64,000 bases of DNA from PVC group bacterium. Lineage in GTDB: Bacteria; Omnitrophota; Gorgyraeia; B26-G9. The stretch spans positions 257,210-321,209 of the forward strand of contig JAAEQR010000072.1 of the NCBI GenBank assembly GCA_024231215.1, given 5' to 3'. Under the pieces are notes generated by a model. It ran no database searches, was not told the DNA's origin, and worked only from the letters and a program-made list of their open reading frames with translations. A program made the position numbers and the translations under genes. Numbering within the stretch: the first letter of the stretch is position 1; the number at the start of each line of letters is the position of its first letter. Below, one piece after another: positions 14,713-64,000 of the stretch.

Positions 14713-15099
14713 ATGGGACAAGAAAGAAGAAAATACATACGTTTAAAAGTACACAGTTCAGTGGCTAATTGCCGTTTGTTGTCAATACGTCAAAGGGACC
14801 CGTGTAGTACCTTTACGGTCTGGCCGGTAAAAGACCTTGGAATTGGAGGGCTATCGGTTCATACTGAAGATGAAGTTCCTTTGGATACCTTAGCATATCT
14901 GAATATGGATCTGGATATCGCTATGCGTACCGTAGGAGTTCTTGCCAAGGTGATCTGGCGTAAGGCAAAAGATGTAGGCTATGAGCTGGGGCTGCAATTT
15001 TGCGGCTGGCCCAAAGAAGATGACCGGGATGCCATGGCTGATTATATTGAGCATCAGATCAGTAGTGAATCTGATTCTGAAGCTATAATTTTAGGATAA
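14713..15099 (+). CDS. PilZ-domain protein (putative c-di-GMP receptor), ~128 aa
   Basis: MGQERRKYIRLKVHS has the RxxxR motif (RKYIR); DLGIGGLSV is a D-x-S/G-x-x-G variant of the second PilZ signature. Probable start ATG 14713 (purine-rich GAGGAAA upstream) rather than track start 14689. Confidence 0.7.
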   Translation: MGQERRKYIRLKVHSSVANCRLLSIRQRDPCSTFTVWPVKDLGIGGLSVHTEDEVPLDTLAYLNMDLDIAMRTVGVLAKVIWRKAKDVGYELGLQFCGWPKEDDRDAMADYIEHQISSESDSEAIILG

Positions 15100-15120
15100 A
15101 TTAATAAGGAGACAATTTTG

Positions 15121-18100
15121 ATGAAGTTTCTAGGTTTAAAACATAGGATGTTAAAACCCAAAATTTGCAATAGAACGTGGCGAAGAACACTAATCTTTTG
15201 GGCTCAAAAAAGCTACAAAAAGCTTCGACAAACAATAAAGTGTGCCTGCGTTTTTTGTAACTTTTTGATCTCCAAAATATCAGCACTCTTTATCCCCGAC
15301 TATCGCAAAATCTGGGTTAAAATAATTGCAATGACACTTGTTCAGACATTTCTGATTGTGAATATCTGTGGACCAGTACATGCCCAAATTAATAATAAGG
15401 AACAGACTAATTCTGATTATCTGGCGCCGCAGGTGATTTTGAATCATGATACCATCCGAAATGCTTTTATTGATATTGTAGAAAATGGTAATATATTCGA
15501 TGGTCTTTTTGAAAGTGAAAATCAATTTAGCGAGGGGGCAGGGAATGATGGGAAGGTACATCATCAATCAACTAATATTTTTAATAATTTTTCAAGTCCG
15601 GTTTCTATCCCAAGTGATTTCGCTAACGGAAAAATAATCAGACTGGATAGCCCCACAGCACCACCGCCACCCGAGAATTTCAAACAAGTTTTTCCAACAG
15701 GTTTTAATGAATTTAAATTTGGTTTGTGGGGAAGATTAAGTTGGAACAAAGAAGATTTAGTTCAACACATGAAGAAATATGGAATAATTGTAGATTCTGA
15801 GGATTTTGATAAAGAACAATTGCGTAGGGTATATAACACGTTTGTTGTAGCGGTTGAAAAAGATAAAGATTTTACAAATGCATGGTTTATGTTGGGAGAA
15901 ATTCATATTTCCAGAGAAGATATGTATTTTCAGGCAGGAGAAGAGAAACCACACAAGCTTCTTTTCCCGCATGTTACAGAATATGAGACAAAAATAATTT
16001 TCTATAATTCTTTCTTTTATATTAATAGAATGACAAGAATTCATTTATTTGATGGAAGAAGCGTAAATGACCGCAAGAAGAATTTAATAGACACCGTTAA
16101 AATGGCTCATGATCTTAGTGTGTATTATGAGGGGAGGGGATTGCCGGTTAAAACTACTGATTTAGAGAGTGCTCAGGCGCAGGATATGTTTGAAAAATTA
16201 GATATAGTTGGAACTGAGTCCACAATAAAATTCATTCTTGATTCGATGAAAGATGAACCGTATGATGATATCAAAATAGCAGTTCCGGAATTAATATCGA
16301 TACAAGCTTTTAAAAACGCATTGAGGATATCGAGAATTAGTTATGAAGAGCTGGGTAGAGAACAAATGATAGAGCTGCTTACAAAGATAAATGAATTGGC
16401 ACAGGAAGATATGCTTAATAAGAGTCGGGTTGACGATGAGCTTTTAAATAGAGCAATATCTGAGTGTTCTAATGTTTCTCTTAGTGCTGGAAAAAAGAAA
16501 ATGCTTATTAAGAGTCTAAATAGTGCAATTGATACCTGGAAAAATGAAAAAAAGTATTGGGGAGTTAGAGAGCACTTTAGTGGCGGGCGTCAAATTCGGA
16601 CATTTCTTTTGTATCCATTTGGCATCCAGGAGTTAGACAGACTTCGAAATGAATCGAATGGATATAAAAATCCTCGTGTTTGGAAAATCCGAGAAGATGA
16701 AGATTCTATGGCTATGTATGAATTGTTATGGAGATATTCGCCTAAAAACCATGAGATAGAGGAGGGGCATTTACAGCAGGTTTTTGCGGCTGATCCAGAT
16801 AATCCTGTTCTAGATATTCCTTTAAAGGATGGATCACCTGATGATATACTTCGTTCAATAGTTGAGATTGCGGTGACTGATTGGAAACAAAAGGCGGCAG
16901 GTCTTTCGGGTGGATTTGTGTCTGCTATGAAGGGAATAACCAATACATTGGGACAGAATGGTTATAATGCGTATTTGCCTGGGCCGAAGACAGAAGGGTT
17001 GCTTAAAGAAGTGCATGCAAATGTTCCTATTTTTAGGCATGGTGGGTATATGGCAGTTGCATTAGATATATGGTTTTTTTATGTTTTTAGTGCCAGAGAA
17101 AACTTAAATGTTAATAAATTGAATCATATTGTAGAACATATTTGTAGGACAAGATATACATTTTTGAATGAAAGAGGAAGAAATCTAGTTAGGACTCATA
17201 TTCAGGAAATTGATAATAAACATCGCAAAGAAAGAAAACTTCGAACTCGCAATTTGAAGTTAAAAGAGGAAGATGATCATTGGGTAAATAATGGGAGTGG
17301 TACATTATTCCCTAAATTATTAAATGTAATGATGGGTATTCCTTTTTTTGCTGTAGAAACTATGATTCCGACAACATTAAAGGCTTCAACTATAGTTCAG
17401 CAAAGTCAGGGAGGTGCTGGTGGAGCGAACTTGGGTGCTTATCTGGTGGGAGGGATAGCTGTTGGATTTTCTGTTTGGATATATAATAAATTTTTTAGTC
17501 AAAAAGCAATTCGGAAAGAAATCGAGAGACTTTCTTTGGAAGCAATGGAGAAAAATGATGTTTCTAAATTAAGAAGATATTATGACAAATCTAATTATAA
17601 ACGTAAGCAGATGATTATTAATACGGTTGGAATAGCCGGAGAAGAAGCAACTAATGAGGCCTTTCTTCAACAACTTATAGCGAGTGAAGGTGACGATGCA
17701 TATGCTAAAGCTGTTGTGGATGGAGTCTATGAATTTTTGTTGCTTAGAACTAGCGATGTATTGTCGGGTACTATATATGAAATATCTGATTTATCATTGC
17801 AGGATTCTGTTTTACTAGAGTTCTTAGTAGAAGATGATATGGATAAAAAATATGATATAGTTATTGAAGATGAATTTGCTGTGGCAGATGAATTGGTCGA
17901 AGTTTTTGGGGAGTTGCAGCAAGAGCAAGCTGATTATGCACTGGGTAACAATGAATTTCATAAAGGAGAATTTTATAGGATGGTCAATGAGAATCCTGTG
18001 CTGAAAGAATCCTTGATTGACGCTGGTAGAAAAAAAGGTGAAGTTCTTCAGCGGTTTGCTATAAATAACTGGATTGCGGTACAAGCTAGAAAAAACAAAG

Positions 18101-18312
18101 AGGATGCTTCAATAGTAGTTGAAAAGTTACTTTCACCGGAAGCAAGAAGAAAAGTGGAAGAAATAGGGGATAATTCTAGTGATCCTGATTTTAGAGCTGA
18201 AGCTGAATTAGCGCTTATGCTGGATGAAAAATTAACAGTTGGAACATCAAGAAGCAGTGTAGATTCGAGAGAAAAAGACTCATTGATTGCAGTTATTGAG
18301 GCTGCAATTTAG
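15121..18312 (+). CDS. Large hypothetical membrane-anchored protein (1,063 aa). Basic Cys-containing N-terminal extension, then the conserved 'LVQTFLIVN' hydrophobic motif, then a later Gly-rich TM segment
   Basis: AAGGAG 9 nt upstream of ATG 15121. Motif RKIWVKIIAMTLVQTFLIVNICGPVHAQ at residues ~62-90; internal hydrophobic GAGGANLGAYLVGGIAVGFSVWIY at nt ~17400-17480. No catalytic motifs recognised. Confidence 0.7.
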   Translation: MKFLGLKHRMLKPKICNRTWRRTLIFWAQKSYKKLRQTIKCACVFCNFLISKISALFIPDYRKIWVKIIAMTLVQTFLIVNICGPVHAQINNKEQTNSDYLAPQVILNHDTIRNAFIDIVENGNIFDGLFESENQFSEGAGNDGKVHHQSTNIFNNFSSPVSIPSDFANGKIIRLDSPTAPPPPENFKQVFPTGFNEFKFGLWGRLSWNKEDLVQHMKKYGIIVDSEDFDKEQLRRVYNTFVVAVEKDKDFTNAWFMLGEIHISREDMYFQAGEEKPHKLLFPHVTEYETKIIFYNSFFYINRMTRIHLFDGRSVNDRKKNLIDTVKMAHDLSVYYEGRGLPVKTTDLESAQAQDMFEKLDIVGTESTIKFILDSMKDEPYDDIKIAVPELISIQAFKNALRISRISYEELGREQMIELLTKINELAQEDMLNKSRVDDELLNRAISECSNVSLSAGKKKMLIKSLNSAIDTWKNEKKYWGVREHFSGGRQIRTFLLYPFGIQELDRLRNESNGYKNPRVWKIREDEDSMAMYELLWRYSPKNHEIEEGHLQQVFAADPDNPVLDIPLKDGSPDDILRSIVEIAVTDWKQKAAGLSGGFVSAMKGITNTLGQNGYNAYLPGPKTEGLLKEVHANVPIFRHGGYMAVALDIWFFYVFSARENLNVNKLNHIVEHICRTRYTFLNERGRNLVRTHIQEIDNKHRKERKLRTRNLKLKEEDDHWVNNGSGTLFPKLLNVMMGIPFFAVETMIPTTLKASTIVQQSQGGAGGANLGAYLVGGIAVGFSVWIYNKFFSQKAIRKEIERLSLEAMEKNDVSKLRRYYDKSNYKRKQMIINTVGIAGEEATNEAFLQQLIASEGDDAYAKAVVDGVYEFLLLRTSDVLSGTIYEISDLSLQDSVLLEFLVEDDMDKKYDIVIEDEFAVADELVEVFGELQQEQADYALGNNEFHKGEFYRMVNENPVLKESLIDAGRKKGEVLQRFAINNWIAVQARKNKEDASIVVEKLLSPEARRKVEEIGDNSSDPDFRAEAELALMLDEKLTVGTSRSSVDSREKDSLIAVIEAAI

Positions 18313-18352
18313 CTTATGGGGCTGAAAAAAATAAAATAAATAGCATATTTGT

Positions 18353-18386
18353 CCGCTGGGGGGAAGAATATCCCGGCGGATTTTTA
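18353..18386 (+). terminator. Rho-independent terminator of the 15121 gene
   Basis: ccgctggg / cccggcgg, an 8-bp stem with one G.U pair and loop gggaagaata, followed by attttt. Confidence 0.65.
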
Positions 18387-18523: not shown

Positions 18524-18552
18524 TTGACAGGGCCTACTTTTTATGATATACT
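18524..18552 (+). promoter_or_regulatory. Near-consensus sigma70 promoter for the giant gene: TTGACA - 17 nt - (TGa)TATACT
   Basis: ttgaca at 18524-18529 and tatact at 18547-18552 with TG two nt upstream (extended -10-like). Predicted TSS ~18559, giving a ~190-nt leader to ATG 18749. Confidence 0.6.
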
Positions 18553-18704: not shown

Positions 18705-18748
18705 CAGATACTGTTACAAAACGCACATCTACAAAATAAGGTGAAGAG

Positions 18749-21700
18749 ATGGTGACTCGAATATTTCATAGTATAGTCTACTGCGGGCACAAATTATTGC
18801 ACATCTGCAGCGTTGTGCTTCTTCAGCTTTCTCGTCGTACCGCAAAGGGTACGCCTCCGGAAGCTTCAGTCGCACGCCTTGCATCTGCACAACACTTTGT
18901 GTCCTCGCGACGACAATACCATGAAATACCCGAGTTGCGCGCAAATCGAAAATACAAATTGTGGTTTCGAATCGTATCCGCGATACTTGTCCAGGCCTTT
19001 TTGGTTATGGATATCGCTATGGCTTCGGGCGGAGATTTGAGCTGGTTAAAAACACCTAAAAATCTATCCCGTAGTGAAAGTAAAATTTCCCATCTTTCTC
19101 CCACCACAAAAATCGATAAAGGAGTTTTCCGAAACAGCGTTGAATTATGGAGCGCTCTTGCTATAGCAATGAATAGTCCTGATAATGAAGAGCTGCGCAA
19201 GCCTTATGGGATTAGTGTTGTTGATGCCCACAATAGAATAATGTCTATAACGATGGAGAAGGAAGTATTATTTATTTATCGTCTTGATGATGCGCCAATC
19301 GCTTTTAAATTAAACCCCGTTCTTGAAACTACAACTAATAAGATGAGATTGGGTGAATTTGAACTTGCGACAGTACCGATTGAAGAAGTAGTTGAAGTAG
19401 GCGGTGATTTACTTGGATATGAAAGAATTATTACTTCGCAGGAGTTTGCAGAACGCTTAGATGCTTTAAACAGCGCGCCAGAGTTTAATGAAGAAGAGGC
19501 TTTGGAGCTGGTCAGACAAATGATATTAGCGGCTGGGATTACCGGAGAGATTAAAACTATAGGTAGGGATCAATATGCGAAATGGAAGCCGGAGAAATGG
19601 GATGTGCAAAAAGAAGCGACCAAGCTGATGTATAAAGGTTGTGTAGTTAATATGCCGACTTCGGCTGGAAAGACGATTGTATTTAATGCTACAGGGATTT
19701 TACGTAATCTTGCTAATAGATTACAAAAAGATAAGAAACGCGAAGTAACGATTGTGCATACTGAAGAAAATTTGGTAGAAAGAGATGCTATGCAGGCAAG
19801 CAAAGTAAATCAAAAGTTTAAAATGACTACCGGATATGTAATTTCTCAGGATGGAGAACGTAAGGCGTATATTGATAAAAATGGAGAGATGGAGGAGACT
19901 ACAGAGCAAGATTTGTATAAGAATGCAGATATTGTTTATATTCATGTTTACAATTTTGTGCATAGATTTCAAGCTGATTGTTATACCGCTAAAAAGACAG
20001 AAGATATCGCTTTGCTTTGGGGCCAACAGACTTATTTTATGGCTTTTGATGAAGGTGATGTTCCTTTAAAACATCATATGTCTACGCCGAGTGTTCTTTC
20101 CGGTGGTAATGATTTGATAGAGGGAATTAGGAAGATGCGATTGCATTTTGCGAAAAAGACAATGCAGATACAGGAGATTGTTGATGAACTTATTCAGGGT
20201 GATTTGTTAGATCCTGTTACTGGTAAGGCATCTAATAATTATTGTGAAGTACATAAGGATTCAAAGACGGTTAATCTGACCCCGAACGGTAAGGATTGGC
20301 TAAGAGCTAAACTCGAAGGAGTGAAAGAATATACTGAAAATAGGAATACAGAGATGGGAGATTTTGATCTATGGTTAGACTTTACAGAGTTGGCTTTATC
20401 TGCATATCGTTGTTATAAGATGGGTGTAGATTATAAGATAAAGGCTGATGCAAATGGCAATAATCAGATTGTAATTATTGATAAAGATACTGGTATGGAG
20501 TTGCCCGGACGGCGCTGGAGTCATGGTGTGGATATTGCCGTGCGTTTAAAAGAAAACCGTCAGGGAACTGAAAAACTTGAAATCAAACCGGATCAGATGA
20601 TTATTGCTTCAATGATGTTGCCGGAAATTCTTAGCTCTCAATTGGGGCTAGTTTCCGGGATTAGTGCAGCTTCTGCTACAATTGGTGAAGATACGGCCCA
20701 GATGTATGATATCAAATGGAAAAATCTTAGTGATCGTACAGAAGAATCAAAAAGAGAAGAGCGAATTGTAGTAAGTTCTGATCAAAAAACATCAGAACAG
20801 CATGCACTGGATATGATTGAGGTTTTAAAAGCTGGTAGTAAGGTAAAAGACTATATGCAGAAATGGGGCATGCCGGATAAAGATAAAACAGGTGCTGTAA
20901 TTATACGTTGTGATTCGGAACCTGAAGGAGCGAAGTTCACAGATGAGCTTATTCAGAAGACTACTTTAGGGCAAAGGAATATACTCAGAATAAAACGAGA
21001 TGGTACAATCGTAGATGCTAATGGTGAGCAGATAAAAGGGGCGAGTTTGCAGAATTTGGATAGTTTAATTGCAAATGATAGTATAGATAATATCTTAATT
21101 GATTTCAGCTCGGGTAATCAGAATATGTTTACTGATTTGACGGGAGAGAAAAAACTGAAAGATAAAATTGCGACGCTTTCTAAAGATAAGCGGGTTATTA
21201 TTGTCTCCACAAACTTAGTTGGTCGTGGGGTGGACTTTAAAGGTGATAACATGGTGTGTATTTCTTTGAGCTGTGATATTGCCGAAGAAAGTGAAATTCA
21301 GCTTAAAGGACGAGTTGCTCGTGACGGCAGAAAGGGGTACTTTTTTGGTTTTTGGTCGATTCAGGATGAAGTTTTTGTGAAATACAAAAAACTTATTCCT
21401 GACTCCCGGATGCATTTTTCGACAAAAGTAAAAGATGGTAAAACGCATATTTTTACCCTGACTAATGATCCTAAGAAATCAGTAGAAAGTGAAAGGCATA
21501 TTGTAGGAATGAGAGATGTTATTAATGATCATATCCAGCAAATGCGTCGTGAACAGAAAAAATTCGGAGAATCTTTATGGGATCCGGGCGATGATTCTGG
21601 ACATAAAAAGGGTTTTGCCAAAGAATTTGTGGAAAATAGATATCGTGTGCTTGTTCGCGGGCTACAGGGGGTGGGGATCCCTGAATTGGATGATATCTTA

Positions 21701-24700
21701 GGAGAGCTATATTACAAATGTGCACAAATAGAAGGGGAAAAAGGTGATGTTGATCCTGTCACACTTGTTGAAATTTTGGAGAATGATTTTGGAGTAAGTG
21801 GTTTTTCTGAGGAGGAAGCGCAGAGTGTTTTAAATAATAATGATTATAATTTAGAGAGGTCTTTGCATCAAATCCTTACTGAATTATTGCAGGCGAAAAC
21901 CTTAGATGTGTTGGACCAAGAATGGAAGAGCTTTATTACACAAGCAGACTGGATTAAACATCGTTTAGAAAAAGAACCTTCCCGCAAAGAACAACGTGGA
22001 AAAGTACAAGCGCAGCAGATCTATGAAGAAATTAAAAATAAGATAGCAAAAAGTTATGCGCAAACACAAAAGACAATAAAAGAACGTTTGGCAAAAGAGG
22101 TGATTTATCAAGCTGCTGCATTTGCCGGAAAACTCCCCACAGATAAAGAGCTAGCTGATTCTAAGAATGAGAGGGAAAAGGAGCAAGAGAAAGATAAGAT
22201 TCCTTTAATGGATCGTGCTAAACTTTTTCTGGTTAAGTTTATTCCTTCGGCTGTAGTTATGTCTTTAAGTATTATGACAGCGGTTGGGATTGGCTATGTT
22301 TTTAAAATTCTGAGTGTTGAAGGTGTTAAGGGGGTAGCTGCTTTGCCTATAGCCGGAAATATATTTGCTTGGTTTTTAGGGTTAGGTCCAATTATCCTGG
22401 TTACAGTTACGATAAGCACAATATTGATAGCCTGGGCGTTGAATTCCCATATAAAACGTTTGTCCCAGGTTGATTCGACGATTGGAGAGATGGCTGAAAT
22501 AGTTACCCAGGCATCTGAGAAAAAGATAAGTGAAATTGGTATTGTTTCAGCTAAGTCGACTTTACGAAAAGTGTTAACTGTAACAGCTACATTTGCTCCA
22601 TTTGTTGCGGCCATGACGTTATTTTCTTTTATTGCTAGTGTTCCTTTTGTTGGAGTTGTAACGGTACCTATACTTGCTTCTGCGGTGTCTGGGGTTATCG
22701 GGATTGTATCTGCTTCATTACTTTTGTTTTTGTCTCGTAAAGAATTAAAGATAGCTCCTACTGTTCCTGTGGGAGCAGGAGCGCAGTTTATGCGTGGCCT
22801 AATTTCTGGAACAATAACAGTTTTAACTGTAGGGGCATTTCTCTGGGTTTCTTCCTCTGTTCTGACAAATCCTGTTGCCTGGGGTCTAATAATTACCCTG
22901 GCTAGTTCTTTTATTGCTAATAGAATATTTAGAAAAGCAACAAAAGTTCCATCTTCAAATATTTTATTGCCTTTATTGGGATTTGTAACCGGAATAAGCC
23001 TGGGGCTTGGAATTATTTTCGGTGTGGTTCCTTTGTTGGGGGCATCGGTACTTAAAACCCTTCCGGGGGCAATGGCCTCGGGAGCAATGAAAGGTCAAGG
23101 GGTTCTTCAGATTCTGGCATATATGGCGTCAATGTTATTTTCTTTTAAACTAGTTAAATTTACTTTGGCTCAATGGAAGCTATCGGAAAAAATAGCGCGT
23201 GAACCTATTGTAGCAGATGGACAGCCAGTAGTAGATGTGTCAAAACAAAAAAGATTAGCTTACTTGACACGAGCATATACACTTAATGCAAGAATGGTAA
23301 TGATGGGTCTGGGCGCGGTTGTAACATTGGCTTTGTTATTTAATACTGGCTGGCTGGCGTTTCTTGTTAATCTGGGGATTCCGATATGGATATCCCGGGT
23401 TGTTGCGGCATTTCCTGTTTTTGCTGGGGCTATATTTATTGCTTTTCTTACGCGTAATATTCTTGGGGCCAGAAAGAAAGTATTTAATTATTCTTATTTA
23501 AGCAAACGTAGAGTATGGAATTTTGTTAGCCAAAGCGTGATAAATAAAGGTAATAGCTGGAGTTTTTTAACTATCCAAGCACAATTAGAACGTGTCGGGC
23601 TTAAAACATTATCTGAACATATCACTGTCGGTATAGATGATTTTAAAGAACGGGTTGCAGATAGTAAGCATGCTTTAGGTTTAGCGCATGGTATTTTGAA
23701 TAATATGGCTCAGAATAGTGGTATTAATGAGAAAGACAAGCTTATGCAGTTATTTCTTACTGAACTGCAGAATTCTGAGCCTGGGGATGGAAGATTCTTT
23801 TCGCAGAAGGAAATAGATAGTATTATTTCTCAAATGATTGCAAGAAGTCATGACAAATTGCTAAGTAAAAAACAGCGACGAGTGTTTAGAAAAGCAATGA
23901 CAGCTGTTTTGGTGGAAATGGATTTAGCAAAAGTTGGTTTAGCAAGATTGTTACATATCGTTAAAGATCAGGAAAACATAGATAAATTTCTTGATTCTCT
24001 TCTTATGCCTACGATGGGAGTTCCAATGCTTGCCACAGCACCAATAGCTGCGGTAGTGAGTCAGAGTCAACAAGAGAGCAGTCCTTATGATAAGTGTAAA
24101 ATTGATGTAAAAGATATTTCTAAAGATGTTCAAGATTATTATGTATCATTAGCTGAAAAGGCATTTAGGGTGTCTTCAGTTTCTGCAGATGATACGACTG
24201 CTTTTGCTTTAGATTATGATTGGGCTCAACGGATGAAATCATTTCAATCGGAAATGAGAATTACTAGAGCAGAACAACAGGCAGGTGATGAGTTTGCAGG
24301 GCGTATGGAAGCAGCGCATCAGAAAATTAAAAAAGCAGATTCTGAAAAAGAACGAATTGAGGCAAGGCTGGAATTAACCAGAGTAATTCAAGAAGCTGGA
24401 TTATCTGTAATCAAGAATATTGATCTTTCCCCAGAAGAATCTAAAGTTCTAGAGCAGGTAACTCAGAAACTTGAAGTAATAACAACATTAATAAGTATCC
24501 GGGAAAATATGGCGAGGGCTACCTATGATTTTAATCAATGGAGAGAACGCGAAGCAACAGAAGATGAAATAGTTCAATATGAGAAAGAATCAACAAAAAC
24601 AATGGCTGAGTTGCAGGCAGTGTTTGTTAAAAAAGCAAAAAGCGCCAATATAGATCCAGAATCTTCGACTGATGCAATTATAGAGCAGAGAAAAAATATT

Positions 24701-56587: not shown

Positions 56588-57243
56588 AGAAAAAAAATAA
56601 TATAGTCAATAGAAAAAAAATAAATATAATGGTGGTTTTTTTTGTTATTTGTTTTTTATTTTCTCTATGGACTATAAGCTATGAGCCATGGACTTCTCTT
56701 TCTTTTGCTCAGGAGGAAGTGAAAGAAGAAGAAATAAAGCAGGTTTTTGTCTATGCGGATAAGGATTCTGAGAAAAATAGTTTTTCCCCCTCAGAATGGA
56801 TAGCTGATGGAGAGGATTTGAGTTTCGATGGCGGTTGGGAAAAAGATCCGCAGCAGGGAAAGACTTGCATAAAAATAGATTATAAGGCAGCTGGTAATTT
56901 TGGTTGGGCGGGGATATACTGGGTTAATCCAAAAGGGAATTGGGGTAATCAAAAAGGGGGGTATGATCTTCGTTTTGCTAAAAAGCTTACATTTTGGGTG
57001 CGCGGTGAAAAGGGTGGCGAATATATTGCGGGATTTAAATTCGGGGGGTTAAAAGGAGTCTTCCCGGATTCAGATAACCATGGTATCGGCCCCATAACGT
57101 TAACCGAACAATGGCAAGAATTAAGCATAGATATATCTCAAAGAAACATGAAATATATCAGTGCCGGGTTTAGTTTTGCCATTACTAAAGCCCATAATCG
57201 CAATGGTTGCACTTTTTATATAGATAATATAAAATATGAATAA
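56584..57243 (+). CDS. Secreted beta-sandwich/CBM-like protein, tandem paralogue A
   Basis: ATG 56584 overlaps TGA 56585-56587, suggesting translational coupling. Hydrophobic N-terminus VVFFVICFLFSLWTIS. Conserved with B and C: KTCIKIDYKAAGNFGWAGIYW, LTFWVRGEKGGE, FKFGG, GIGPITLTEQWQELSIDIS, CTFYIDNIKYE. Confidence 0.65.
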   Translation: MKKKNNIVNRKKINIMVVFFVICFLFSLWTISYEPWTSLSFAQEEVKEEEIKQVFVYADKDSEKNSFSPSEWIADGEDLSFDGGWEKDPQQGKTCIKIDYKAAGNFGWAGIYWVNPKGNWGNQKGGYDLRFAKKLTFWVRGEKGGEYIAGFKFGGLKGVFPDSDNHGIGPITLTEQWQELSIDISQRNMKYISAGFSFAITKAHNRNGCTFYIDNIKYE

Positions 57244-57283
57244 AGATATCCGCTACAAAAATCGGCGGATCCAATTTGTGTAG

Positions 57284-57313
57284 ATCATTTAGTTCATAAA
57301 GTCGCTAAATGAT
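57284..57313 (+). promoter_or_regulatory. Conserved 5'-UTR stem-loop upstream of CBM-like paralogue B
   Basis: atcatttag / ctaaatgat, a 9-bp stem with 12-nt loop ttcataaagtcg, ~15 nt upstream of the AAGGAGG RBS. Preceded by a second hairpin atccgc..gcggat (57248-57270). Confidence 0.5.
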
Positions 57314-57343
57314 GTGCTTATTAGAGAAAGGAGGAGCAAGGTG

Positions 57344-57991
57344 ATGAAAAAATTAAGTTGGATTGTAGTAGTAATGATTTTGGGATTATTCTTGAGCTTG
57401 AATGTTCAAGCGCAGGATATGGCTGAGGATTATGAAGAAGAGGAATTAGTTGGTAGACCGGCAAAGTTTGTAGATGGGGTTTTTGGGGTTTATTATGATC
57501 GGGGTAATCGTCAGAATCATTATATCCCATCGGGCTGGATGGGTGATCATGGTGATATCAAGATGAATGAGAATTGTAAAGAGAACCCGCATAGCGGCAA
57601 GAGCTGTATAAAGTTTACCTATACCGCAGAAGGCAAGCAGGGGGCGAATTGGTGTGGAGTAGCTTGGCAGAACCCGGCAAATAACTGGGGTGAAAAAAAT
57701 GGCGGAAAAGACTTGACTGGAGCAACAAAGCTGACTTTCTGGGCCCGAGGGGAACAGGGAAATGAACGCATACTGGAGTTTAAATTCGGCGGTATCGGAG
57801 GAACTTATGCGGATTCTGATTCTATGGGTATTGGACCAATTGATGTTACTACAGAGTGGCAGCAATATACTATAGACTTAACGGATACTGACTTATCTTA
57901 TATTATTGGAGGCTTCTGTTGGTCGACAAATGCGGATGCTAATCCTGATGGATGTGTTTTTTATCTTGATGATATCCAATATGAAAAATAA
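57344..57991 (+). CDS. Secreted beta-sandwich/CBM-like protein, tandem paralogue B
   Basis: AAGGAGG 9 nt before ATG 57344 (MKKLSWIVVVMILGLFLSLNVQAQD). ~75% identical to paralogue C: KSCIKFTYT..GKQGANWCGV.WQNP.NNWGEK.GG, KLTFWARGE, GIGP.D.TTEWQQYTIDLTD, C..YLDDIQYE. Confidence 0.75.
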   Translation: MKKLSWIVVVMILGLFLSLNVQAQDMAEDYEEEELVGRPAKFVDGVFGVYYDRGNRQNHYIPSGWMGDHGDIKMNENCKENPHSGKSCIKFTYTAEGKQGANWCGVAWQNPANNWGEKNGGKDLTGATKLTFWARGEQGNERILEFKFGGIGGTYADSDSMGIGPIDVTTEWQQYTIDLTDTDLSYIIGGFCWSTNADANPDGCVFYLDDIQYEK

Positions 57992-58023
57992 TTATTGAAA
58001 AATCTAGGTTAGATTGATTATAA

Positions 58024-58062
58024 AAGGGTAGGGGTTAGAATAGTAGCTTCTACCCTTTTTAA
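58024..58062 (+). terminator. Rho-independent terminator (repeated element, copy 1)
   Basis: aagggtag / ctaccctt stem with 18-nt loop gggttagaatagtagctt, followed by ttttt. Confidence 0.6.
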
Positions 58063-58183
58063 TAGTAAGGGGTGTTAGTTCACAGAACAGAGAGGGTTGC
58101 ATTTTTTTTATAGATGATATAAAATAAAGAACAATAGAAATAGGTTGTTTTGCCAAAAGACTTGGCAGATTTAATTCGCGTAG

Positions 58184-58215
58184 ATTACTTAGCTTTACGT
58201 TGTTCGCTAAGTAAT
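58184..58215 (+). promoter_or_regulatory. Conserved 5'-UTR stem-loop upstream of CBM-like paralogue C
   Basis: attacttagc / gctaagtaat, a perfect 10-bp stem with 12-nt loop tttacgttgttc, ~15 nt upstream of the AAGGAGG RBS. Preceded by a second hairpin tgccaa..ttggca (58151-58168). Same stem/loop geometry as 57284-57313 with covarying sequence. Confidence 0.5.
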
Positions 58216-58243
58216 GCGTTTATTAAAGAAAGGAGGCAAAGGA

Positions 58244-58879
58244 ATGCAAAAGATTAAAATTTTACTAGTGATGCTTATTGCTAGTTTGATACTGAGTGTT
58301 AATGTACAGGCTCAGGATGATAATTACGAGGAATTAATTGGTAGGCCGGGAAAGTTTGTAGACGGGGTATTCGGAGTATACTTTGACCGGGGTAATCGTC
58401 AGAATCATTTTTGTCCTTCAGGCTGGATGGGCGATTTTGGCGATGTAAAGATGAATGAAAAATGGACAGATAACCCGCATAGCGGCAAGAGCTGTATAAA
58501 GTTTACTTATACGGGAAAAGGCAAGCAGGGTGCAAATTGGTGTGGCGTGTTCTGGCAGAATCCTCCAAATAACTGGGGTGAAAAAAAGGGTGGTTTCGAC
58601 TTGAGCGAAGCGACAAAACTTACTTTCTGGGCCAGAGGAGAAACAGGCAAAGAACGTATTCAGGAATTTAAAATGGGTGGTATTGGCGGGACTTATTCGG
58701 ATTCTGATTCGGCTGGAATCGGTCCGGTTGATCTGACTACAGAGTGGCAGCAATATACGATTGATCTTACTGATGTTGATCTTACATATGTTAACGGTGG
58801 TTTTTGCTGGTCAACTAATATTGATGCTAATCCGGAAGGATGTGTGTTATACTTGGATGATATTCAATACGAACAGTAA
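58244..58879 (+). CDS. Secreted beta-sandwich/CBM-like protein, tandem paralogue C
   Basis: AAGGAGG before ATG 58244 (MQKIKILLVMLIASLILSVNVQAQD); see paralogue B. Confidence 0.75.
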   Translation: MQKIKILLVMLIASLILSVNVQAQDDNYEELIGRPGKFVDGVFGVYFDRGNRQNHFCPSGWMGDFGDVKMNEKWTDNPHSGKSCIKFTYTGKGKQGANWCGVFWQNPPNNWGEKKGGFDLSEATKLTFWARGETGKERIQEFKMGGIGGTYSDSDSAGIGPVDLTTEWQQYTIDLTDVDLTYVNGGFCWSTNIDANPEGCVLYLDDIQYEQ

Positions 58880-58915
58880 TTGTGGGGGGAAGAATAGTCA
58901 ATATATAGATTTGTA

Positions 58916-58955
58916 AAGGGTAGGGGTTAGGGGAAAAGCTTCTACCCCTTATTTA
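58916..58955 (+). terminator. Probable terminator (repeated element, copy 2)
   Basis: gggtag / ctaccc stem with loop gggttaggggaaaagctt (same GGGTTAG..AGCTT loop core as copy 1), followed by a weaker cttattta T-tract. Confidence 0.45.
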
Positions 58956-59000
58956 TAATTAAGGGAGTTTTTTAAGAAGGGAAAATAAAGGGAATTTATA

Positions 59001-60272
59001 ATGAAAAGACGTACAATCGCTATATTTTTAATTTTAATTTTCGGCTTTAATTTTGAACTAAAAGCGGAAACGGATAAGATTGTTATTAAGAAGTTAAAAA
59101 ACGGACATTATCAGATGCTGGTGAATGAAAAACCGTATGTGGTAAAAGGTGTCTGTTATGCTCCGATACCTATAGGTAAAAGTCATTTGACTAATTTTAT
59201 GTGCGATCCAAACAAACCTTGGGTTGTAGATGGAAAAATCATGCAGGAAATGGGTATTAATACGATCAGATTATACCATGCTGGAGATGAACCAAAATTT
59301 TGCAAAGCAATGATTGAGGATTTATATAAGCTTTATGGGATACGTACAATTTTAGGTCATAATTTGGGGTTTTGGGATTATCCACCGCCTAATTATGGAG
59401 ATGAGGAATTTATTAAGGAGATAACCGAAGAAACCCTCAAAATGATTGAATATTTTAAAGATACCCAGGGAATTTTATTCTGGAACTTAGGGAATGAGAA
59501 TAATTATAGCTTTGACGGCCGGATAAATCCTTGGAGTACTCCGGAGATTGATGAATTGAAAAGTCATCGGGATAAAACAAATGCCCGGGCAAAGATTTAT
59601 TATTCTTTTGTAAATGAGGTAGCAAAAAAGATAAAAGAAATCGATCCTAATCATCCTGTATCCTTAGGTAATGGGGAGACAGTAGGTCTTAAAATTGCTG
59701 CGGGAAATTGTCCGGATGTTGATTTGTTAGGATGCATAGTATATCGTGGAAAGGTATTTGGTACTTTTTTCAAAGAAGTTAAACGTAAATTTGATAAACC
59801 GGTGGTATTAACTGAATATGGTTGTGACGCCTATAATGCAGTAAAACAAAAAGAAGATCAGAGGAATCAGGCGAAGTTTTTAAGAAGTCAATGGTTGGAT
59901 TTAGAGAAAAACTTTGCGAATGGAGAAGGCATAGGTAACTGTTTGGGCGGTGCTATATTCGAATGGACCGATGAGTGGTGGAAAACATCTGAATCTGACC
60001 GAGATAGTTGGCTGGTGCATGATATAAGCGCTAGCTGGGGTATGGGAGCGTATGATTTTGATGCTAAGGCGGGAAAGAATATGAACGAGGAATGGTTTGG
60101 TCTTCTGGCTATATCTGAGGAATTAGATGAAAGTGGTAATAATAAAAGGATTCCGCGCAAAGCATATTATGTCTTAAGAGCATTGTGGAATGATAAAGTA
60201 GCTCGAGAAAAAGAAACAGAAAAAAAGAAAAAGCCTAAGGGTGCTAAAGTTATAAAGAAGAATACGAAATAA
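59001..60272 (+). CDS. Secreted clan GH-A glycoside hydrolase (second copy, shorter)
   Basis: Signal peptide MKRRTIAIFLILIFGFNFELKA. Motifs GINTIRLYHAGDEP, ILFWNLGNENNY, YYSFVNEVAKKIKEIDPNHPVS, KPVVLTEYGCDAY, EWTDEWWKT, collinear with ORF 54692. Confidence 0.65.
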   Translation: MKRRTIAIFLILIFGFNFELKAETDKIVIKKLKNGHYQMLVNEKPYVVKGVCYAPIPIGKSHLTNFMCDPNKPWVVDGKIMQEMGINTIRLYHAGDEPKFCKAMIEDLYKLYGIRTILGHNLGFWDYPPPNYGDEEFIKEITEETLKMIEYFKDTQGILFWNLGNENNYSFDGRINPWSTPEIDELKSHRDKTNARAKIYYSFVNEVAKKIKEIDPNHPVSLGNGETVGLKIAAGNCPDVDLLGCIVYRGKVFGTFFKEVKRKFDKPVVLTEYGCDAYNAVKQKEDQRNQAKFLRSQWLDLEKNFANGEGIGNCLGGAIFEWTDEWWKTSESDRDSWLVHDISASWGMGAYDFDAKAGKNMNEEWFGLLAISEELDESGNNKRIPRKAYYVLRALWNDKVAREKETEKKKKPKGAKVIKKNTK

Positions 60273-60324: not shown

Positions 60325-62163
60325 ATGAAATGGTTCAATAACCTTATGTTTTTGATCTGTATTGGGATGATGTTCCTTTATTATCCAGTCCAAATAAATG
60401 CTGCGGAAACAGCTTCTATTGATAATTCTTTTCGCCAAGAATTAAATACAAAGATTAACAATTTTTTCCAAGAGAAACAATTTGTAGAAGCAATAGAATA
60501 TTTAGAAGCGCTTAATGCAGAAAAAGTGGCTGAAGAAAACGCAGATTCTCTTTATATAGAATACTATTTGATGCTTACTAAAACAACTTATCTCGATTAT
60601 CTGGAGTCTGAAGAAGATTGGGAGAATTATTATAATTCTTATCAAGATCTTGATATAGAGATTATTGAAACAGCTGAGTATCTTGTTTCTGAGTATTCGG
60701 TTTCAGGTGTAATTGTTGATGTCCAGTCTCTTGCCTGGAAAGCATATATGCGGGAGGAAGATAAAGAGGCAGCTGACGGTGCATTTGATGCTTTAGTCGA
60801 TATGGTTATTGCCTATACGGCTGAACAGGGTGATATCGTCAAGTTTAAGGAATTAGCTGATTTAGTAAATAGTCAGGCTGGCTATTCGCAGATGAACACA
60901 TTGTTTGCTGAATATCGCGATTATCTTATAGAAACAGAGGCAGATATAAGTTCGGTTGATAGTTTATCAGAAGTTGCCCGTTCATACTTAGAAACCGAAG
61001 ATATAGATACAGCAATTATTATTTATGAACATTATATGGAGCTGCTTGCTGAGCATTATGATACAAATGAAAGTTTAGAAAAGTTAAGTATGATTGCGGA
61101 TAAATTCCGACATCACGGATTCTCTCCGGCGCAAGATGCTGATTTTGCCGAAACAGTATATGATTATGTGCAGCAGAAGTTTGGTTTGGAAGCTCTATCT
61201 GATATGGATATGCTGGCTCGGGCTTATAATTTAGAGTTAAACGGACAATATGAGCGTGCTTTCGAGGAATATAAAAATTTTGTAAAGATGTTTCCGGATA
61301 GCCAGTTCATACATGAAGCATATACGCGTCTAGGGGTGATTAGTTTTTATTGTTTATCAAAACCAGAGCAGGGGATTGCTTTTTTTCAAAAAGTTCTGGA
61401 GGATGCCGGAAATTCATTTAATGCCCCATTTTGTATGTATGAAATGGCCTTATTCTATCAATGGAATCAAGAGCATGATATGGCACGTGAATTATATTTG
61501 CAATTATCTGAAGGGGAAGGGATGTTTGCTGACTTAGCAGCGCAGCGTTTAGCAGAGATAGATGAGGGGGATCAAATGCAGAGTGATCTTACCTCTTTAT
61601 TTGATCTTGTTTTGAAGGAGAAAACAGAGGACTCTACGATAATTATGGAGCTGACGGCACAGCCGGATCGGGGTATTGTCGGAGAAGAGATAATATTAAC
61701 CGGAGTGGCACAGGATTTCTCTGCCGGGACAGTTCAACCGTCGTTTAGTTATGAATGGTTACGGGATACGGGGACAAGCGGAGATCCTGGTAATGTGACA
61801 GAATTTAAAACAACTTACGATACTCCCGGCCCGAAAATTGTCTGTTTTTCAGCAGAGGTAGCAGATAGCCGGGCAGTTATTGGTAAGGTTATATGGATTT
61901 ATGAGCTGGCAGTAAGTATGCCTGAGACAGAAGAGGTGAAAACCGGGGAGTCAGTAGATTTTAAAGCGCAGATTTCACCTCCGATCACAGAAGAAGATTA
62001 TTTAAAATGGGCCTGGACGCTTAGCGGTCCGGAAGAAGTTTCAGGGGAAGGTAAAGAGTTTAGTGCTGTATTTGCAGAAAGTGGTAGTTACGAAGGCCAG
62101 TTGGAAATTTCTAATGGCGAGATAAAAGCAGTAAAGAAGTTTACTTTTCAGGTAACCGAATAG
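60325..62163 (+). CDS. Secreted hypothetical protein: N-terminal helical (TPR-like?) region plus two C-terminal PKD/Ig-like repeats
   Basis: GAGAGGTGGAGG RBS; signal peptide MKWFNNLMFLICIGMMFLYYPVQINAAE. C-terminal repeats FSYEWLRDTGTSGDPGN..KIVCFSAEV and LKWAWTLSGPEEVSGEGKEFSAVF..GSYEGQL resemble PKD-type beta-sandwich repeats (motif-level only). Confidence 0.6.
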   Translation: MKWFNNLMFLICIGMMFLYYPVQINAAETASIDNSFRQELNTKINNFFQEKQFVEAIEYLEALNAEKVAEENADSLYIEYYLMLTKTTYLDYLESEEDWENYYNSYQDLDIEIIETAEYLVSEYSVSGVIVDVQSLAWKAYMREEDKEAADGAFDALVDMVIAYTAEQGDIVKFKELADLVNSQAGYSQMNTLFAEYRDYLIETEADISSVDSLSEVARSYLETEDIDTAIIIYEHYMELLAEHYDTNESLEKLSMIADKFRHHGFSPAQDADFAETVYDYVQQKFGLEALSDMDMLARAYNLELNGQYERAFEEYKNFVKMFPDSQFIHEAYTRLGVISFYCLSKPEQGIAFFQKVLEDAGNSFNAPFCMYEMALFYQWNQEHDMARELYLQLSEGEGMFADLAAQRLAEIDEGDQMQSDLTSLFDLVLKEKTEDSTIIMELTAQPDRGIVGEEIILTGVAQDFSAGTVQPSFSYEWLRDTGTSGDPGNVTEFKTTYDTPGPKIVCFSAEVADSRAVIGKVIWIYELAVSMPETEEVKTGESVDFKAQISPPITEEDYLKWAWTLSGPEEVSGEGKEFSAVFAESGSYEGQLEISNGEIKAVKKFTFQVTE

Positions 62164-62184
62164 ATAAGGAGATGTTTTCAATAC

Positions 62185-64000
62185 ATGCAAACCAAAGAGC
62201 GAAGAAAATATATTCGCTTAAATAAGATATTTCCTGTCGAATTACAAGTTGTAGACCTCCATAATAAACCGCTTAGCGGTCTTCTTCAAGGCTTTACCCG
62301 TGATGTTAGTTTTGAAGGTGTATGTATAGCAATCAATAATTTTGATCATCTGCATCTGGAAGCGCTTTTAAAACAACAAGCAAAAGTCATTCTCTTTTTA
62401 AATATACCTTTAAAACATGAATCGGTTAGAGCTGTATCTAGTTTAATATGGATGGAGAAATCGGATACTCCGTATGAGCACAGTTATCATTTGGGGATGA
62501 AGTATGAAGTAATAGATAAGGTAGAACAACGGCAGATTATACGGCATGCATGTTTTACCAGGCGTTTTCCGCGGGTGGTAGCTGTATGCTTTATTATTTT
62601 TGTTTTGTCTTCAATATACCTGTTGTTTGAAAATAGACGGCTTCTTTATGATAATAAATTGCTGGTAAAAGAAATAACAGTATTTTCCCATCGGCAGTTT
62701 GAGGTGCAGACAGCCTTGGACAAAATAGAGGCAGAAAAAATCATTGTGCACAAACTATTGCAAAATAGCAGTCAAGAGCTCAAAAATCTGAAAGGACAGG
62801 TTATTTTACTGGACCAGAGTTTACGAGATAAACAATTAAAAGATAGGACTGCTGTAGATTTGCTTATCAATGAACGTCGTCAGCTGGATAGACAATTGGC
62901 TTTATTGATAAAGGATAAAACAAAGTTGGAAGAAAAATTAAAAAATTATAGTGAGAATGAAACAGAATTAAAAACACAATTAGTTGATCTTAAGGGTAAA
63001 CGAATGCTTTTGGGGAGCAAGAGTTTGCAACTAATGTATAAGTGGCTTATATCCGCACAGTCTGGGAAAACAGGACTTGTGCTTAGTTATGAAGACGATT
63101 CGTCATTAATAGATGTTGGTTTTACGTATGATCAGGCACTAAGTGCTTTTAATTTTGTTTATTTTGAGGAATATACAAGGGCTGAAAAGATTTTTGATTT
63201 TTTTAAAACTAAAGCACAAAGAATAGAGGGAGGTTTTGCAAATGCATACGATGTTGTTAACGGCAGTGTAAATGAATACATTGTGCATAGTGGACCATCC
63301 AGCTATCTTGGTTTAGCAATGTTATATTATGAAGACAAGACCGGAAAGGGTAAATATCGTTCACTTGCTTGTGATATCGGAGATTGGGTTTTAACTCTAC
63401 AAAAAGAAAGTGATCAGGGGGGGGTATGCGGTGGTCCTGGGTTAACCTGGAGCAGTACCGAACAAAACTTAGCAGCATATGTTTTATTTAAGAATCTAGC
63501 TAAACGCACTCAAGAGCAGAAGTACTCAAGAGCTGCGGAAAAGATATTAGTTTGGTTAAAAGATGTGGCGTATAATCATAAACTTAAGCGGTTTAACCGT
63601 GGTGCTTCTGATGGAATGATTGCGACGGATGCTATTGCTCTAAGTATTTTGGCTTTGGGGCCGGCCGGATTAAGTGAAATAGGCATCGATGTAGAAGATT
63701 TGATCGTTTGTGTGGAAGAAAACTGTAAGATACAAGTATGGGTTAAGGATGTTTTCGGTAAAAGACAAAGTGTTACTGGCTATGATTTTTGTTCTCCGTC
63801 AAGTATTGGCAGGCGAGGGTTAGTGTCGGTTGAGTGGACGGCACAGATGGTTATAGCGTATAAAGAATTGAGCCGCTATTATTTGAAGGAAAATAATGAT
63901 AAAAAGGCTCGTAGATATATGAGTAAGGCAGATTACTATCTGGGAGAACTTGAGAAGTTATTGCTGGTTCGATCGTCCGGGTTTGGTGTCTCTAGAAGTA
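62185..64000 (+). CDS. 3'-truncated multidomain membrane protein: N-terminal PilZ domain, TM helix, coiled coil, then a C-terminal domain with possible (alpha/alpha)6-type glycosidase-like motifs; continues beyond the window
   Basis: Not in the ORF track because there is no stop before nt 64000. MQTKERRKYIRLNKIF (RxxxR) and TRDVSFEGVCI (DxSxxG) give PilZ. RFPRVVAVCFIIFVLSSIYLLF is a TM helix. QFEVQTALDKIEAEKIIVHKLLQNSSQELKNLKGQVILLDQSLRDKQLKDRT..LEEKLKNYSENETELKTQL is a coiled coil. The C-terminal LVLSYEDDSSLIDVGFTYDQALSAFNF..GGVCGGPGLTWSSTEQN is unassigned. Confidence 0.65.
   Translation, partial: MQTKERRKYIRLNKIFPVELQVVDLHNKPLSGLLQGFTRDVSFEGVCIAINNFDHLHLEALLKQQAKVILFLNIPLKHESVRAVSSLIWMEKSDTPYEHSYHLGMKYEVIDKVEQRQIIRHACFTRRFPRVVAVCFIIFVLSSIYLLFENRRLLYDNKLLVKEITVFSHRQFEVQTALDKIEAEKIIVHKLLQNSSQELKNLKGQVILLDQSLRDKQLKDRTAVDLLINERRQLDRQLALLIKDKTKLEEKLKNYSENETELKTQLVDLKGKRMLLGSKSLQLMYKWLISAQSGKTGLVLSYEDDSSLIDVGFTYDQALSAFNFVYFEEYTRAEKIFDFFKTKAQRIEGGFANAYDVVNGSVNEYIVHSGPSSYLGLAMLYYEDKTGKGKYRSLACDIGDWVLTLQKESDQGGVCGGPGLTWSSTEQNLAAYVLFKNLAKRTQEQKYSRAAEKILVWLKDVAYNHKLKRFNRGASDGMIATDAIALSILALGPAGLSEIGIDVEDLIVCVEENCKIQVWVKDVFGKRQSVTGYDFCSPSSIGRRGLVSVEWTAQMVIAYKELSRYYLKENNDKKARRYMSKADYYLGELEKLLLVRSSGFGVSRS

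Follow-up and report, generated by a model that had tools for sequence, protein, structure and literature searches.

The stretch of DNA analysed here (the window) comprises 64,000 nucleotides (nt) of a PVC group bacterium assigned to the Omnitrophota (GenBank assembly GCA_024231215.1, contig JAAEQR010000072.1, positions 257,210 to 321,209 of the forward strand). It carries one giant gene, whose product has 10,730 amino acids (aa), and three genes with a PilZ domain, the receptor domain for the second messenger cyclic di-GMP (c-di-GMP). The three are called PilZ1, PilZ2 and PilZ3 in the order of their positions (Table 1). The window is probably a typical Omnitrophota giant-gene locus which receives c-di-GMP input through three separate PilZ receptors. 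PilZ2 is located directly downstream of the giant gene, and its pairing with giant genes is conserved across species in spite of the mosaic make-up and strong divergence of the giant proteins. This conserved partnership argues for a functional link, and hence for c-di-GMP input into the system.

According to West-Roberts et al. (2023, bioRxiv 10.1101/2023.11.21.568195, section 11, Fig. 5C), most giant genes of Omnitrophota have small pilZ genes, sugar transporters and glycosyl hydrolases downstream. In that section, the core association of giant gene and pilZ is already published. Added here are an independent quantification of the association, the separation of the three PilZ contexts, and the description of a family of PilZ-transmembrane-(α/α)6 proteins and of terminal motifs shared by several proteins of the locus. 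The family and the motifs have more potential than the central association. Giant genes of Omnitrophota are thought to mediate both the attachment to and the digestion of prey or host cells. The conserved PilZ partner is the sole regulatory handle seen so far, and it makes c-di-GMP switching of a giant protein testable. PilZ2 and the SecA-like domain of the giant protein are small enough to be expressed and assayed in vitro without culturing the organism.

Identity of the three PilZ domains

The window is AT-rich (G+C about 37%), and all its substantial open reading frames (ORFs) lie on the plus strand. Three of them had been called PilZ in an initial annotation made from the sequence alone, and all three were recovered by Pfam with scores (Table 1) above the gathering cut-off of model PF07238 (22.5 bits). 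PilZ3 exceeds the cut-off narrowly, and many members of its family have precomputed PF07238 hits. A custom PilZ hidden Markov model (HMM), built from 80 relatives and run over the six frames of the window, found exactly these three domains. A fourth PilZ, either in the gap at 18312-18749 or fused to the 1,064-aa protein encoded before it, was sought by ORF listing, tblastn and HMM, and none was detected. In NCBI, identical proteins are recorded for a metagenome-assembled contig of 708,307 bp labelled "PVC group bacterium"; PilZ1 and PilZ2 are named "PilZ domain-containing protein" in that annotation, and full-length PilZ3 (P0027) is named "hypothetical".

The motifs RxxxR and [D/N]hSxxG, which define the canonical PilZ class of Galperin and Chou (bioRxiv 10.1101/814665), were taken as the standard. 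RxxxR is present in the N-terminal loop of all three domains. PilZ2 and PilZ3 fit the second motif, and PilZ1 (DLGIGG) has Gly at the usual Ser position. The looser pattern D-x-S/G-x-x-G, reported for all three domains in the initial annotation, is indeed found in each. In the PilZ2 family, R8, R12, D43, S45 and G48 are invariant (22 sequences). Among 54 sequences of the PilZ3 family, the two Arg are kept in 52-53, D/N in all 54 and the final Gly in 53; the Ser position is occupied by Ser in 40 and by Gly in 11.

The AlphaFold2 model of PilZ2 (predicted local distance difference test, pLDDT, 77.8) shows six strands and, at residues 104-117, a C-terminal helix, and the same six-stranded barrel with a helix is seen in the model of PilZ3 (pLDDT 90.4). 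When the PilZ2 model was compared with the PDB by Foldseek, the best matches were MotI/DgrA, VCA0042, the PilZ domain of BcsA, YcgR, Alg44 and PA4608, with TM-scores against solved PilZ domains, normalised to the query, of about 0.44-0.65. The three ORFs are identified as PilZ because their Pfam scores are above the cut-off, their motifs are invariant or nearly so in their families, and the barrel and helix predicted for PilZ2 and PilZ3 match c-di-GMP-bound PilZ structures.

Conservation of PilZ2 beside giant genes

PilZ2 has 24 homologues of about 119 aa, which are 47-67% identical to it. Where they carry an organism name, it is Omnitrophota or Omnitrophica, the exceptions being the entry of the window itself ('PVC group') and one labelled 'Pacebacteria'. 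A scan of GTDB species-representative genomes with the alignment of the PilZ2 family gave 12 loci (the related loci carry the prefix L here), of which 11 are titled Omnitrophota metagenome-assembled genomes and one (L011) is titled uncultured Planctomycetia bacterium. In nine of the 14 distinct loci of the pooled set, the ORF directly before the PilZ2 orthologue (45-67% identical) has 3,180 aa or more; for this count, an upstream ORF was considered giant when it filled the whole 10-kb upstream flank.

The placement of a PilZ gene right after the giant stop codon, 37 nt away, had been pointed out in the initial annotation, and this position is kept in at least nine related genomes. For instance, L001 has a giant gene (11,887 aa) followed by a PilZ gene and the same cassette as the window. 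A PilZ gene also follows the giant genes of L008 (9,126 aa) and L009 (8,365 aa), and in L004 (6,877 aa) a bAvd-like gene lies between the two. In L005, the PilZ gene is preceded by three shorter proteins. Several loci have other genes downstream and still a giant ORF upstream, so PilZ2 is linked to the upstream giant gene and not to the sugar cassette. It had also been claimed that two PilZ genes hug the giant gene. Only PilZ2 does, as PilZ1 is located 3.65 kb upstream, separated by a 3.2-kb gene and a gap of 437 nt. Synteny in relatives thus argues for a functional link of PilZ2 with the giant gene; PilZ1 and PilZ3 are associated with other genes.

Transcription units

The sequence suggests three transcription units: PilZ1 with the 1,064-aa gene, the giant gene with PilZ2, and the sugar cassette up to the TPR-PKD gene with PilZ3. 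PilZ2 appears to be co-transcribed with the giant gene, since the 37-nt gap between them has no terminator-like site, promoter-like sites occur after PilZ2 (in a gap of 238 nt), and a conserved promoter-like site precedes the giant gene. The latter, an 11/12 match to the consensus, is the best promoter-like site of the region. It is contained in an 83-nt block which is 82% identical to the DNA just upstream of the giant gene in the closest relative, L007, and which is the only conserved intergenic DNA found. The Rfam search gave no family match, c-di-GMP riboswitches included, even for the conserved leader that precedes the giant gene.

The giant protein and its mosaic conservation

The giant protein starts with an N-terminal anchor, followed by a SecA-like ATPase, a cluster of transmembrane segments, about 7,000 aa without predicted transmembrane segments, in which a weak GH2_C-like part is included, and C-terminal transmembrane clusters which flank a conserved module. 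It ends in the tail '…SLLIEAAI'. With its N-terminal SecA-like region and 26 hydrophobic segments, it belongs to the type of giant protein described in section 11 of the preprint (West-Roberts et al. 2023).

A comparison of window positions 18749-50941 with L007:13972-20382 and L001:2-9940 showed the giant proteins to be mosaic. The first 2,080 aa or so, i.e., the anchor, the SecA-like ATPase and the first transmembrane cluster, align with the N-terminus of the L007 giant protein at 43% identity (BLASTP, 900/2,078). The last 3,300 aa share a single block of 560 aa, at 28% identity, with those of the closest relative. In the same relative, PilZ2 is 67% identical and the flanking genes are 48-82% identical. 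The neighbouring proteins of 978, 639 and 490 aa have no tblastn match at 1e-5 there, and the sugar cassette is 74-82% identical.

Two kinds of genes found in related loci should be mentioned here. The 117-aa gene between giant gene and PilZ in L003/L004 has Pfam matches to bAvd and 23S_rRNA_IVP. bAvd is an accessory protein of diversity-generating retroelements, and this gene may have a bearing on the hypervariability of the proteins of these loci. Genes of the Y1_Tnp family, i.e., IS200/RAYT-like tyrosine transposases, recur in L008, L009, L011, L022 and L023, and the PilZ genes of L008 and L011 are immediately followed by one. The mosaic rearrangements may be driven by these transposases.

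PilZ1 and its paralogues

PilZ1 is lineage-restricted. Among 5.8 billion proteins, its sole homologue is P0026, which is 64% identical and has the same position in the closest relative. The gene upstream of PilZ1 encodes a 639-aa protein ending in '…ELVLQAI'. The 1,064-aa membrane protein encoded downstream has an N-terminal anchor with the motif 'YLAPQ' and the C-terminal tail '…AVIEAAI'; it has no Pfam or NCBIfam family match, and is 25% identical to the product of an 879-aa gene at the equivalent position of L007.

An extra canonical PilZ gene (121 aa), whose product is 33% identical to PilZ2, is found in L007 directly upstream of the giant gene, where the window has only the 437-nt non-coding gap. 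PilZ1, PilZ2 and the extra PilZ of L007 are mutual nearest relatives at 22-33% identity and look like a local paralogue expansion.

PilZ3 and the glycan cassette

The third PilZ domain had been described as the N-terminus of a multidomain membrane protein, which holds; this protein is attached to a cassette for glycan uptake and hydrolysis, not to the giant gene. Its family has about 650 aa and at least 58 homologues. The AlphaFold model, made from an alignment of 53 sequences (predicted TM-score, pTM, 0.80), shows a PilZ barrel at residues 1-110, whose terminal helix runs into a transmembrane segment, then a helical hairpin or coiled coil of about 150 aa, a stalk reaching to about residue 291, and an (α/α)6 barrel at 300-651. 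In Foldseek, the (α/α)6 barrel matches six-hairpin enzymes such as cellobiose 2-epimerase/AGE, GH76 and GH8 (E=6e-10 to 2e-6). The family has many invariant acidic residues, which is consistent with an active enzyme, predicted to act on glycans.

Members of the PilZ3 family lie in or beside glycan cassettes in seven contexts (the window, L005/L016, L018-L020, L022 and L023). Except in L023, the gene directly before is a TPR(-PKD) gene; in the window, PilZ3 starts 21 nt after it. In L023, a 200-aa ORF directly precedes the member (32% identical), which closes a cassette of the binding-protein/permease/GH2_C type. The gene context of a 36%-identical member in L024 is unrelated.

In the window, the cassette consists of an MFS_2 transporter, two glycosidase-like proteins of clan GH-A and, between these, three tandem paralogues of about 220 aa with signal peptides. 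The genes at 54692..60272 are 74-82% identical to those of a relative. The tandem paralogues have no family match; they end in 'FY(L/I)D(D/N)I(Q/K)YE' and are 75-79% identical in the glycan cassettes of relatives. Both GH-A proteins also match GH72 (35.1 and 26.2 bits), above the Pfam cut-off and more weakly than GH2_C. GH72 is the family of fungal β-1,3-glucanosyltransferases. Together with a GT48 domain in the giant protein of L004, these matches hint at β-1,3-glucan chemistry, or they may reflect generic similarity within clan GH-A. Between PilZ2 and the transporter, a secreted or anchored protein of 490 aa is encoded, which has no Pfam or NCBIfam match.

Proposed mechanism

Control of the locus by c-di-GMP is plausible on the basis of the sequence. 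At a high c-di-GMP level, PilZ2 would bind the nucleotide through its RxxxR and DhSxxG motifs and dock on a conserved region of the giant protein in the cytoplasm. Once docked, it would license or brake this protein's export, deployment or activity. The likeliest target would be the N-terminal SecA-like ATPase with its membrane base, because a conserved adaptor most simply implies a conserved target, and this is the only region of comparable conservation; the short conserved C-terminal tail would be the alternative. PilZ3 would be a second, membrane-spanning receptor, in which the signal would pass from the cytoplasmic PilZ domain through the transmembrane helix and the coiled-coil stalk to the extracytoplasmic (α/α)6 domain, so that the glycan processing of the neighbouring sugar-uptake/hydrolase cassette would be coupled to c-di-GMP. 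PilZ1 would be a recent paralogue with a similar job for the 1,064-aa membrane protein. The cyclases and phosphodiesterases setting the c-di-GMP level would be encoded outside the window.

Several observations weigh against this interpretation. In L012 and L016, the PilZ2 orthologue is preceded by a protein of 544-584 aa, not by a giant one. Furthermore, L018-L020 carry a second PilZ2-like paralogue (45-49% identical) with a non-giant gene upstream; it comes after a PilZ3-family gene, a gene of about 778 aa and one of about 229 aa. Therefore, the partner of PilZ2 need not be giant as such. In PilZ1, Gly replaces the Ser of the motif. The initial annotation had proposed to look for GGDEF and EAL genes nearby, and Pfam detected no GGDEF, EAL or HD-GYP domain in any ORF of the window, the giant protein included; the source of the c-di-GMP signal would therefore lie elsewhere in the genome. 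Finally, promoters and terminators were called only by their match to consensus sequences. As for the second paralogue, the corresponding region of the window, after PilZ3, falls past the window end; the 215-aa counterpart of the 229-aa gene in L022 has weak matches to pseudopilins (N_methyl/T2SSJ).

Alternative explanations

PilZ2 could instead regulate the downstream sugar-uptake/hydrolase cassette, by binding its transporter or a regulator, and neighbour the giant gene only by way of the cassette. The cassette does follow PilZ2 in the window and in L001, and the orthologue of L005/L016 has the MFS-GH cassette downstream without a giant ORF directly upstream. This reading is nonetheless unlikely, as in L004, L008/L014, L009, L013 and L015 the downstream genes differ (Y1 transposase-like genes, other large proteins) and the giant ORF is present upstream; in L011, a transposase-like gene and a 1,044-aa ORF come first, and cassette-like ORFs further on. 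The spacing in the window, 37 nt to the giant stop codon against 238 nt with promoter-like sites to the next gene, also speaks for the giant gene. A chance cluster, i.e., three PilZ domains falling within 50 kb of a PilZ-rich genome without any functional link, would suit the lineage-specific PilZ1 but is very improbable overall. PilZ2 and PilZ3 keep their positions in genomes with orthologues of only 45-67% identity, and no stray PilZ was seen elsewhere in about 300 kb of related loci scanned. The argument against chance is thus synteny conserved across species, and not a density statistic. Another possibility is that the small PilZ proteins are adaptors which no longer respond to c-di-GMP, like the Xanthomonas PilZ protein XC1028, so that the locus would be free of second-messenger control. 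The motif DLGIGG of PilZ1, which departs from D-h-S-x-x-G, and the lack of turnover domains nearby would agree with it. PilZ proteins which do not bind c-di-GMP are documented, but the documented ones lack the two motifs (bioRxiv 10.1101/814665). The PilZ2 family keeps RxxxR and D-h-S-x-x-G without exception, and the PilZ3 family almost without exception, which makes a loss of response improbable.

The initial annotation had drawn an analogy with cellulose synthase BcsA, a GT2 enzyme whose C-terminal PilZ domain gates the active site. In a split version of this arrangement, the conserved C-terminal module of the giant protein would be a processive glycan synthase of GT48/GT2-like type gated by PilZ2. 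It would be part of a synthase-dependent polysaccharide system, to which the TPR protein and the glycosidases would contribute the remaining components. The giant protein of L004 (GCA_004196255.1) does have a strong match to PF02364 Glucan_synthase (E=2.1e-69), the GT48 domain of eukaryote-type β-1,3-glucan synthases, and to Glyco_trans_2_3 about 1,100 aa before its C-terminus, and its gene is followed by the bAvd-like gene and PilZ. In the window, the module is a soluble domain between transmembrane clusters, at a position comparable to that of the GT48 domain in L004. A scan of 1.8 billion representative proteins gave 127 homologues of it. The family has invariant motifs (DR, TGW, SED, K.RE and RW..G..Q), the last three of which are put in register with the core 'NEDIYAG…RGGR…K.RE' of L004 by BLASTP (E=3e-4) and by hhalign, the latter at a probability of only 0.1-0.2%. 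The GH72-like matches and the TPR protein downstream would also suit a polysaccharide system, but the GH72 matches are weaker than the generic GH2_C ones. Moreover, neither the module nor any of nine homologues examined has a Pfam match, and in an hmmsearch of PDB sequences and of the L004 GT48 domain the profile HMM of the module matched neither that domain nor any synthase. The giant proteins of L008, L009, L011, L013 and L015 have no GT48/GT2-type domain, and that of L017 has only a weak partial match of 17 bits, even though a PilZ2 orthologue follows each of them. That the module resembles the catalytic core of GT48/GT2 enzymes is no more than a lead, and a split BcsA-like system is accordingly a doubtful proposition. 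The analogy with BcsA requires a processive glycan synthase as the gated target. The giant protein of one relative has a domain of this type; for the giant protein of the window, the link is statistically unsupported. Reception of c-di-GMP by the three PilZ proteins, with PilZ2 acting on the giant protein, remains the preferred interpretation.

Shared terminal motifs

A C-terminal tail recurs on the giant protein and on many neighbouring proteins of 250-1,400 aa. It consists of two hydrophobic residues, any residue, Q/N/E/G, A/S and a C-terminal I, with LIEQAI, IIDQAI, LIGQAI, IVGQAI, VLQAI, IEAAI and KIEQSI as examples. Beyond the window, it occurs in L001, L004, L005, L007-L009, L011-L013, L015 and L017. 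When ORFs of 120 aa or more were counted in the window together with 15 non-redundant loci, 29 of the 135 on the plus strand ended in [AS]I, against none of the 86 on the minus strand. No NCBIfam match was obtained when a known C-terminal sorting domain was sought for the '…QAI' tail. The '…QAI'-type tail is confined to this clade and is not general to the family of the C-terminal module, in which only 3 of 127 proteins end in AI.

At the other end, the 978-aa, the 1,064-aa and the giant proteins share an N-terminal anchor, 'ILxQAFLVxN' and then '(Y/H)L(S/A)P(Q/T)'; the 639-aa protein has the LSPQ motif only. These motifs suggest that the tail-bearing proteins are paralogous at both ends. The proteins are hypervariable between close relatives. 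PilZ genes of the PilZ1/PilZ2 clade always stand directly after a tail-bearing gene, even a non-giant one (L012, L016); the exceptions are the second paralogues of L018-L020, and L004 with its bAvd-like gene between. The converse fails, as many tail-bearing genes have no PilZ behind them.

A bolder reading, which is speculative and on balance unlikely, sees in the locus a machine for the c-di-GMP-licensed deployment of hypervariable surface proteins. The tail φφx[Q/N/E][A/S]I-COOH and the anchor 'ILxQAFLV…LSPQ' would mark the giant protein and its fast-evolving neighbours as clients of one apparatus. The small PilZ proteins would be c-di-GMP-dependent adaptors coupling these clients to export, through the tail or the SecA-like motor, and PilZ3 would pass the signal through the membrane to the (α/α)6 domain, a glycan enzyme on the outside. 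If this were true, one pulse of second messenger, e.g., upon prey contact, would synchronise attachment proteins, glycan cutting and sugar uptake.

Table 1 Features of the window and of related loci (coordinates without a locus prefix refer to the window)
Feature	Coordinates	Strand	Remarks
PilZ1	14713..15099	+	128 aa, single-domain PilZ; RKYIR, DLGIGG; PF07238 32.4 bits, E=1.2e-7
1,064-aa membrane protein	15118..18312	+	start 15118/15121, 18-21 nt after PilZ1; strong Shine-Dalgarno
Promoter-like site	18524..18552	+	TTGACA-17-TATACT, extended -10 TG; 11/12 consensus; in the 437-nt gap upstream of the giant gene
Conserved 83-nt block	18523-18602; L007:13786-13867		contains the promoter-like site
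Giant gene	18749..50941	+	32,193 nt, 10,730 aa
SecA_DEAD / SecA_PP_bind / Helicase_C region	19580..21328	+	aa 278-860; Pfam E=1.2e-10, 4.6e-10, 1.9e-5
C-terminal module	47591..49159	+	aa 9615-10137, flanked by transmembrane clusters; 127 representative homologues, mostly in proteins of 3,000-7,700 aa
PilZ2	50979..51335	+	118 aa, stand-alone canonical PilZ; RQCKR, DISLLG; PF07238 39.9 bits
Promoter-like sites after PilZ2	51414-51443		in the 238-nt gap
490-aa secreted or anchored protein	51573..53045	+	tail '…NKIEQSI'
MFS_2 (glycoside-type) sugar transporter	53217..54677	+	Pfam E=6.2e-55; 77% identical to relative's gene
Clan GH-A TIM-barrel glycosidase-like gene	54692-56587	+	GH2_C 4.3e-13
Tandem paralogue, ~220 aa	56569-57243	+	signal peptide
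Tandem paralogue, ~220 aa	57314-57991	+	signal peptide
Tandem paralogue, ~220 aa	58214-58879	+	signal peptide
Clan GH-A TIM-barrel glycosidase-like gene	59001-60272	+	GH2_C 1.3e-8
TPR + PKD protein	60325..62163	+	Pfam; directly upstream of PilZ3
PilZ3	62185..64000	+	runs off the window end; full length P0027, 651 aa; RKYIR, DVSFEG; PF07238 24.9 bits
C-terminal tails	12555-12575, 14588-14608, 18292-18312, 50918-50941, 53025-53045
N-terminal anchor regions	9639-9760, 12689-12770, 15300-15450, 18960-19120
Extra PilZ of the closest relative	L007:13106-13471		121 aa
Glucan_synthase region of the L004 giant protein	L004:5400-6300		PF02364, Glyco_trans_2_3
bAvd / 23S_rRNA_IVP gene	L003/L004:9595-9948		117 aa
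Second PilZ2-like paralogue region	L018:4734-10366, L019:4630-10366, L020:4270-10354		22-25 kb downstream of the first PilZ2
Y1_Tnp genes	L008:10551-11189, L009:14077-14745, L011:10457-11110, L022:16637-17308, L023:15435-16067

Comparison with known systems

The window resembles the published Omnitrophota giant-gene loci in its giant protein with many transmembrane segments and a divergent SecA_DEAD domain, in the pilZ gene directly after it, and in the carbohydrate transporter and glycosyl hydrolases (West-Roberts et al. 2023, section 11). Some differences are evident. GGDEF domains are invoked in many giant proteins in that preprint, and the giant protein of the window has none. The importer is of the MFS_2 type instead of the binding-protein-dependent ATP-binding cassette (ABC) type described there, of which L023 has an example. 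Unlike in the loci of section 11, no homologue of type II/IV secretion was found by Pfam in the 18 kb upstream, and the six ORFs between 159 and 14608 have no Pfam family above threshold; such a cluster may be encoded before the start of the window. In L022, a pseudopilin-like gene is located downstream of the PilZ3 homologue. In a term search of the preprint (bioRxiv 10.1101/2023.11.21.568195), no mention of an upstream PilZ, of a PilZ-transmembrane-(α/α)6 protein or of the C-terminal tail was returned.

As in BcsA, a PilZ domain with RxxxR and DxSxxG motifs accompanies a large envelope protein with many transmembrane segments, the PilZ2 model superposes on the PilZ domain of BcsA, and a processive-synthase-type domain occurs in the giant protein of one relative (L004). 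In contrast to BcsA, PilZ2 is a separate ORF which is not fused to the C-terminus, and no gating loop is identifiable. As single-domain proteins of about 120 aa, PilZ1 and PilZ2 are more like the stand-alone adaptors MapZ/PA4608, MotI/DgrA and the PilZ of the Xanthomonas PilZ-FimX-PilB system, and by this analogy they are expected to act by binding a partner. The known partners of stand-alone PilZ proteins are often motors or ATPases; to our knowledge, there is no precedent for a SecA-like motor inside a giant protein as a PilZ target.

PilZ2 also matches the PilZ domain of Alg44 in its model, and the closest parallels to PilZ3 are Alg44 and the inside-out signalling of LapD. The outer domain of PilZ3, an (α/α)6 barrel carried by a long coiled-coil stalk, is unlike the HlyD/MFP-like domain of Alg44, and it is not a periplasmic output domain for protease sequestration as in LapD. 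Nevertheless, PilZ3 is predicted to share with both a cytoplasmic N-terminal receptor part, here a PilZ domain, a single transmembrane segment and a large extracytoplasmic domain, and according to the model c-di-GMP could act across the membrane through it.

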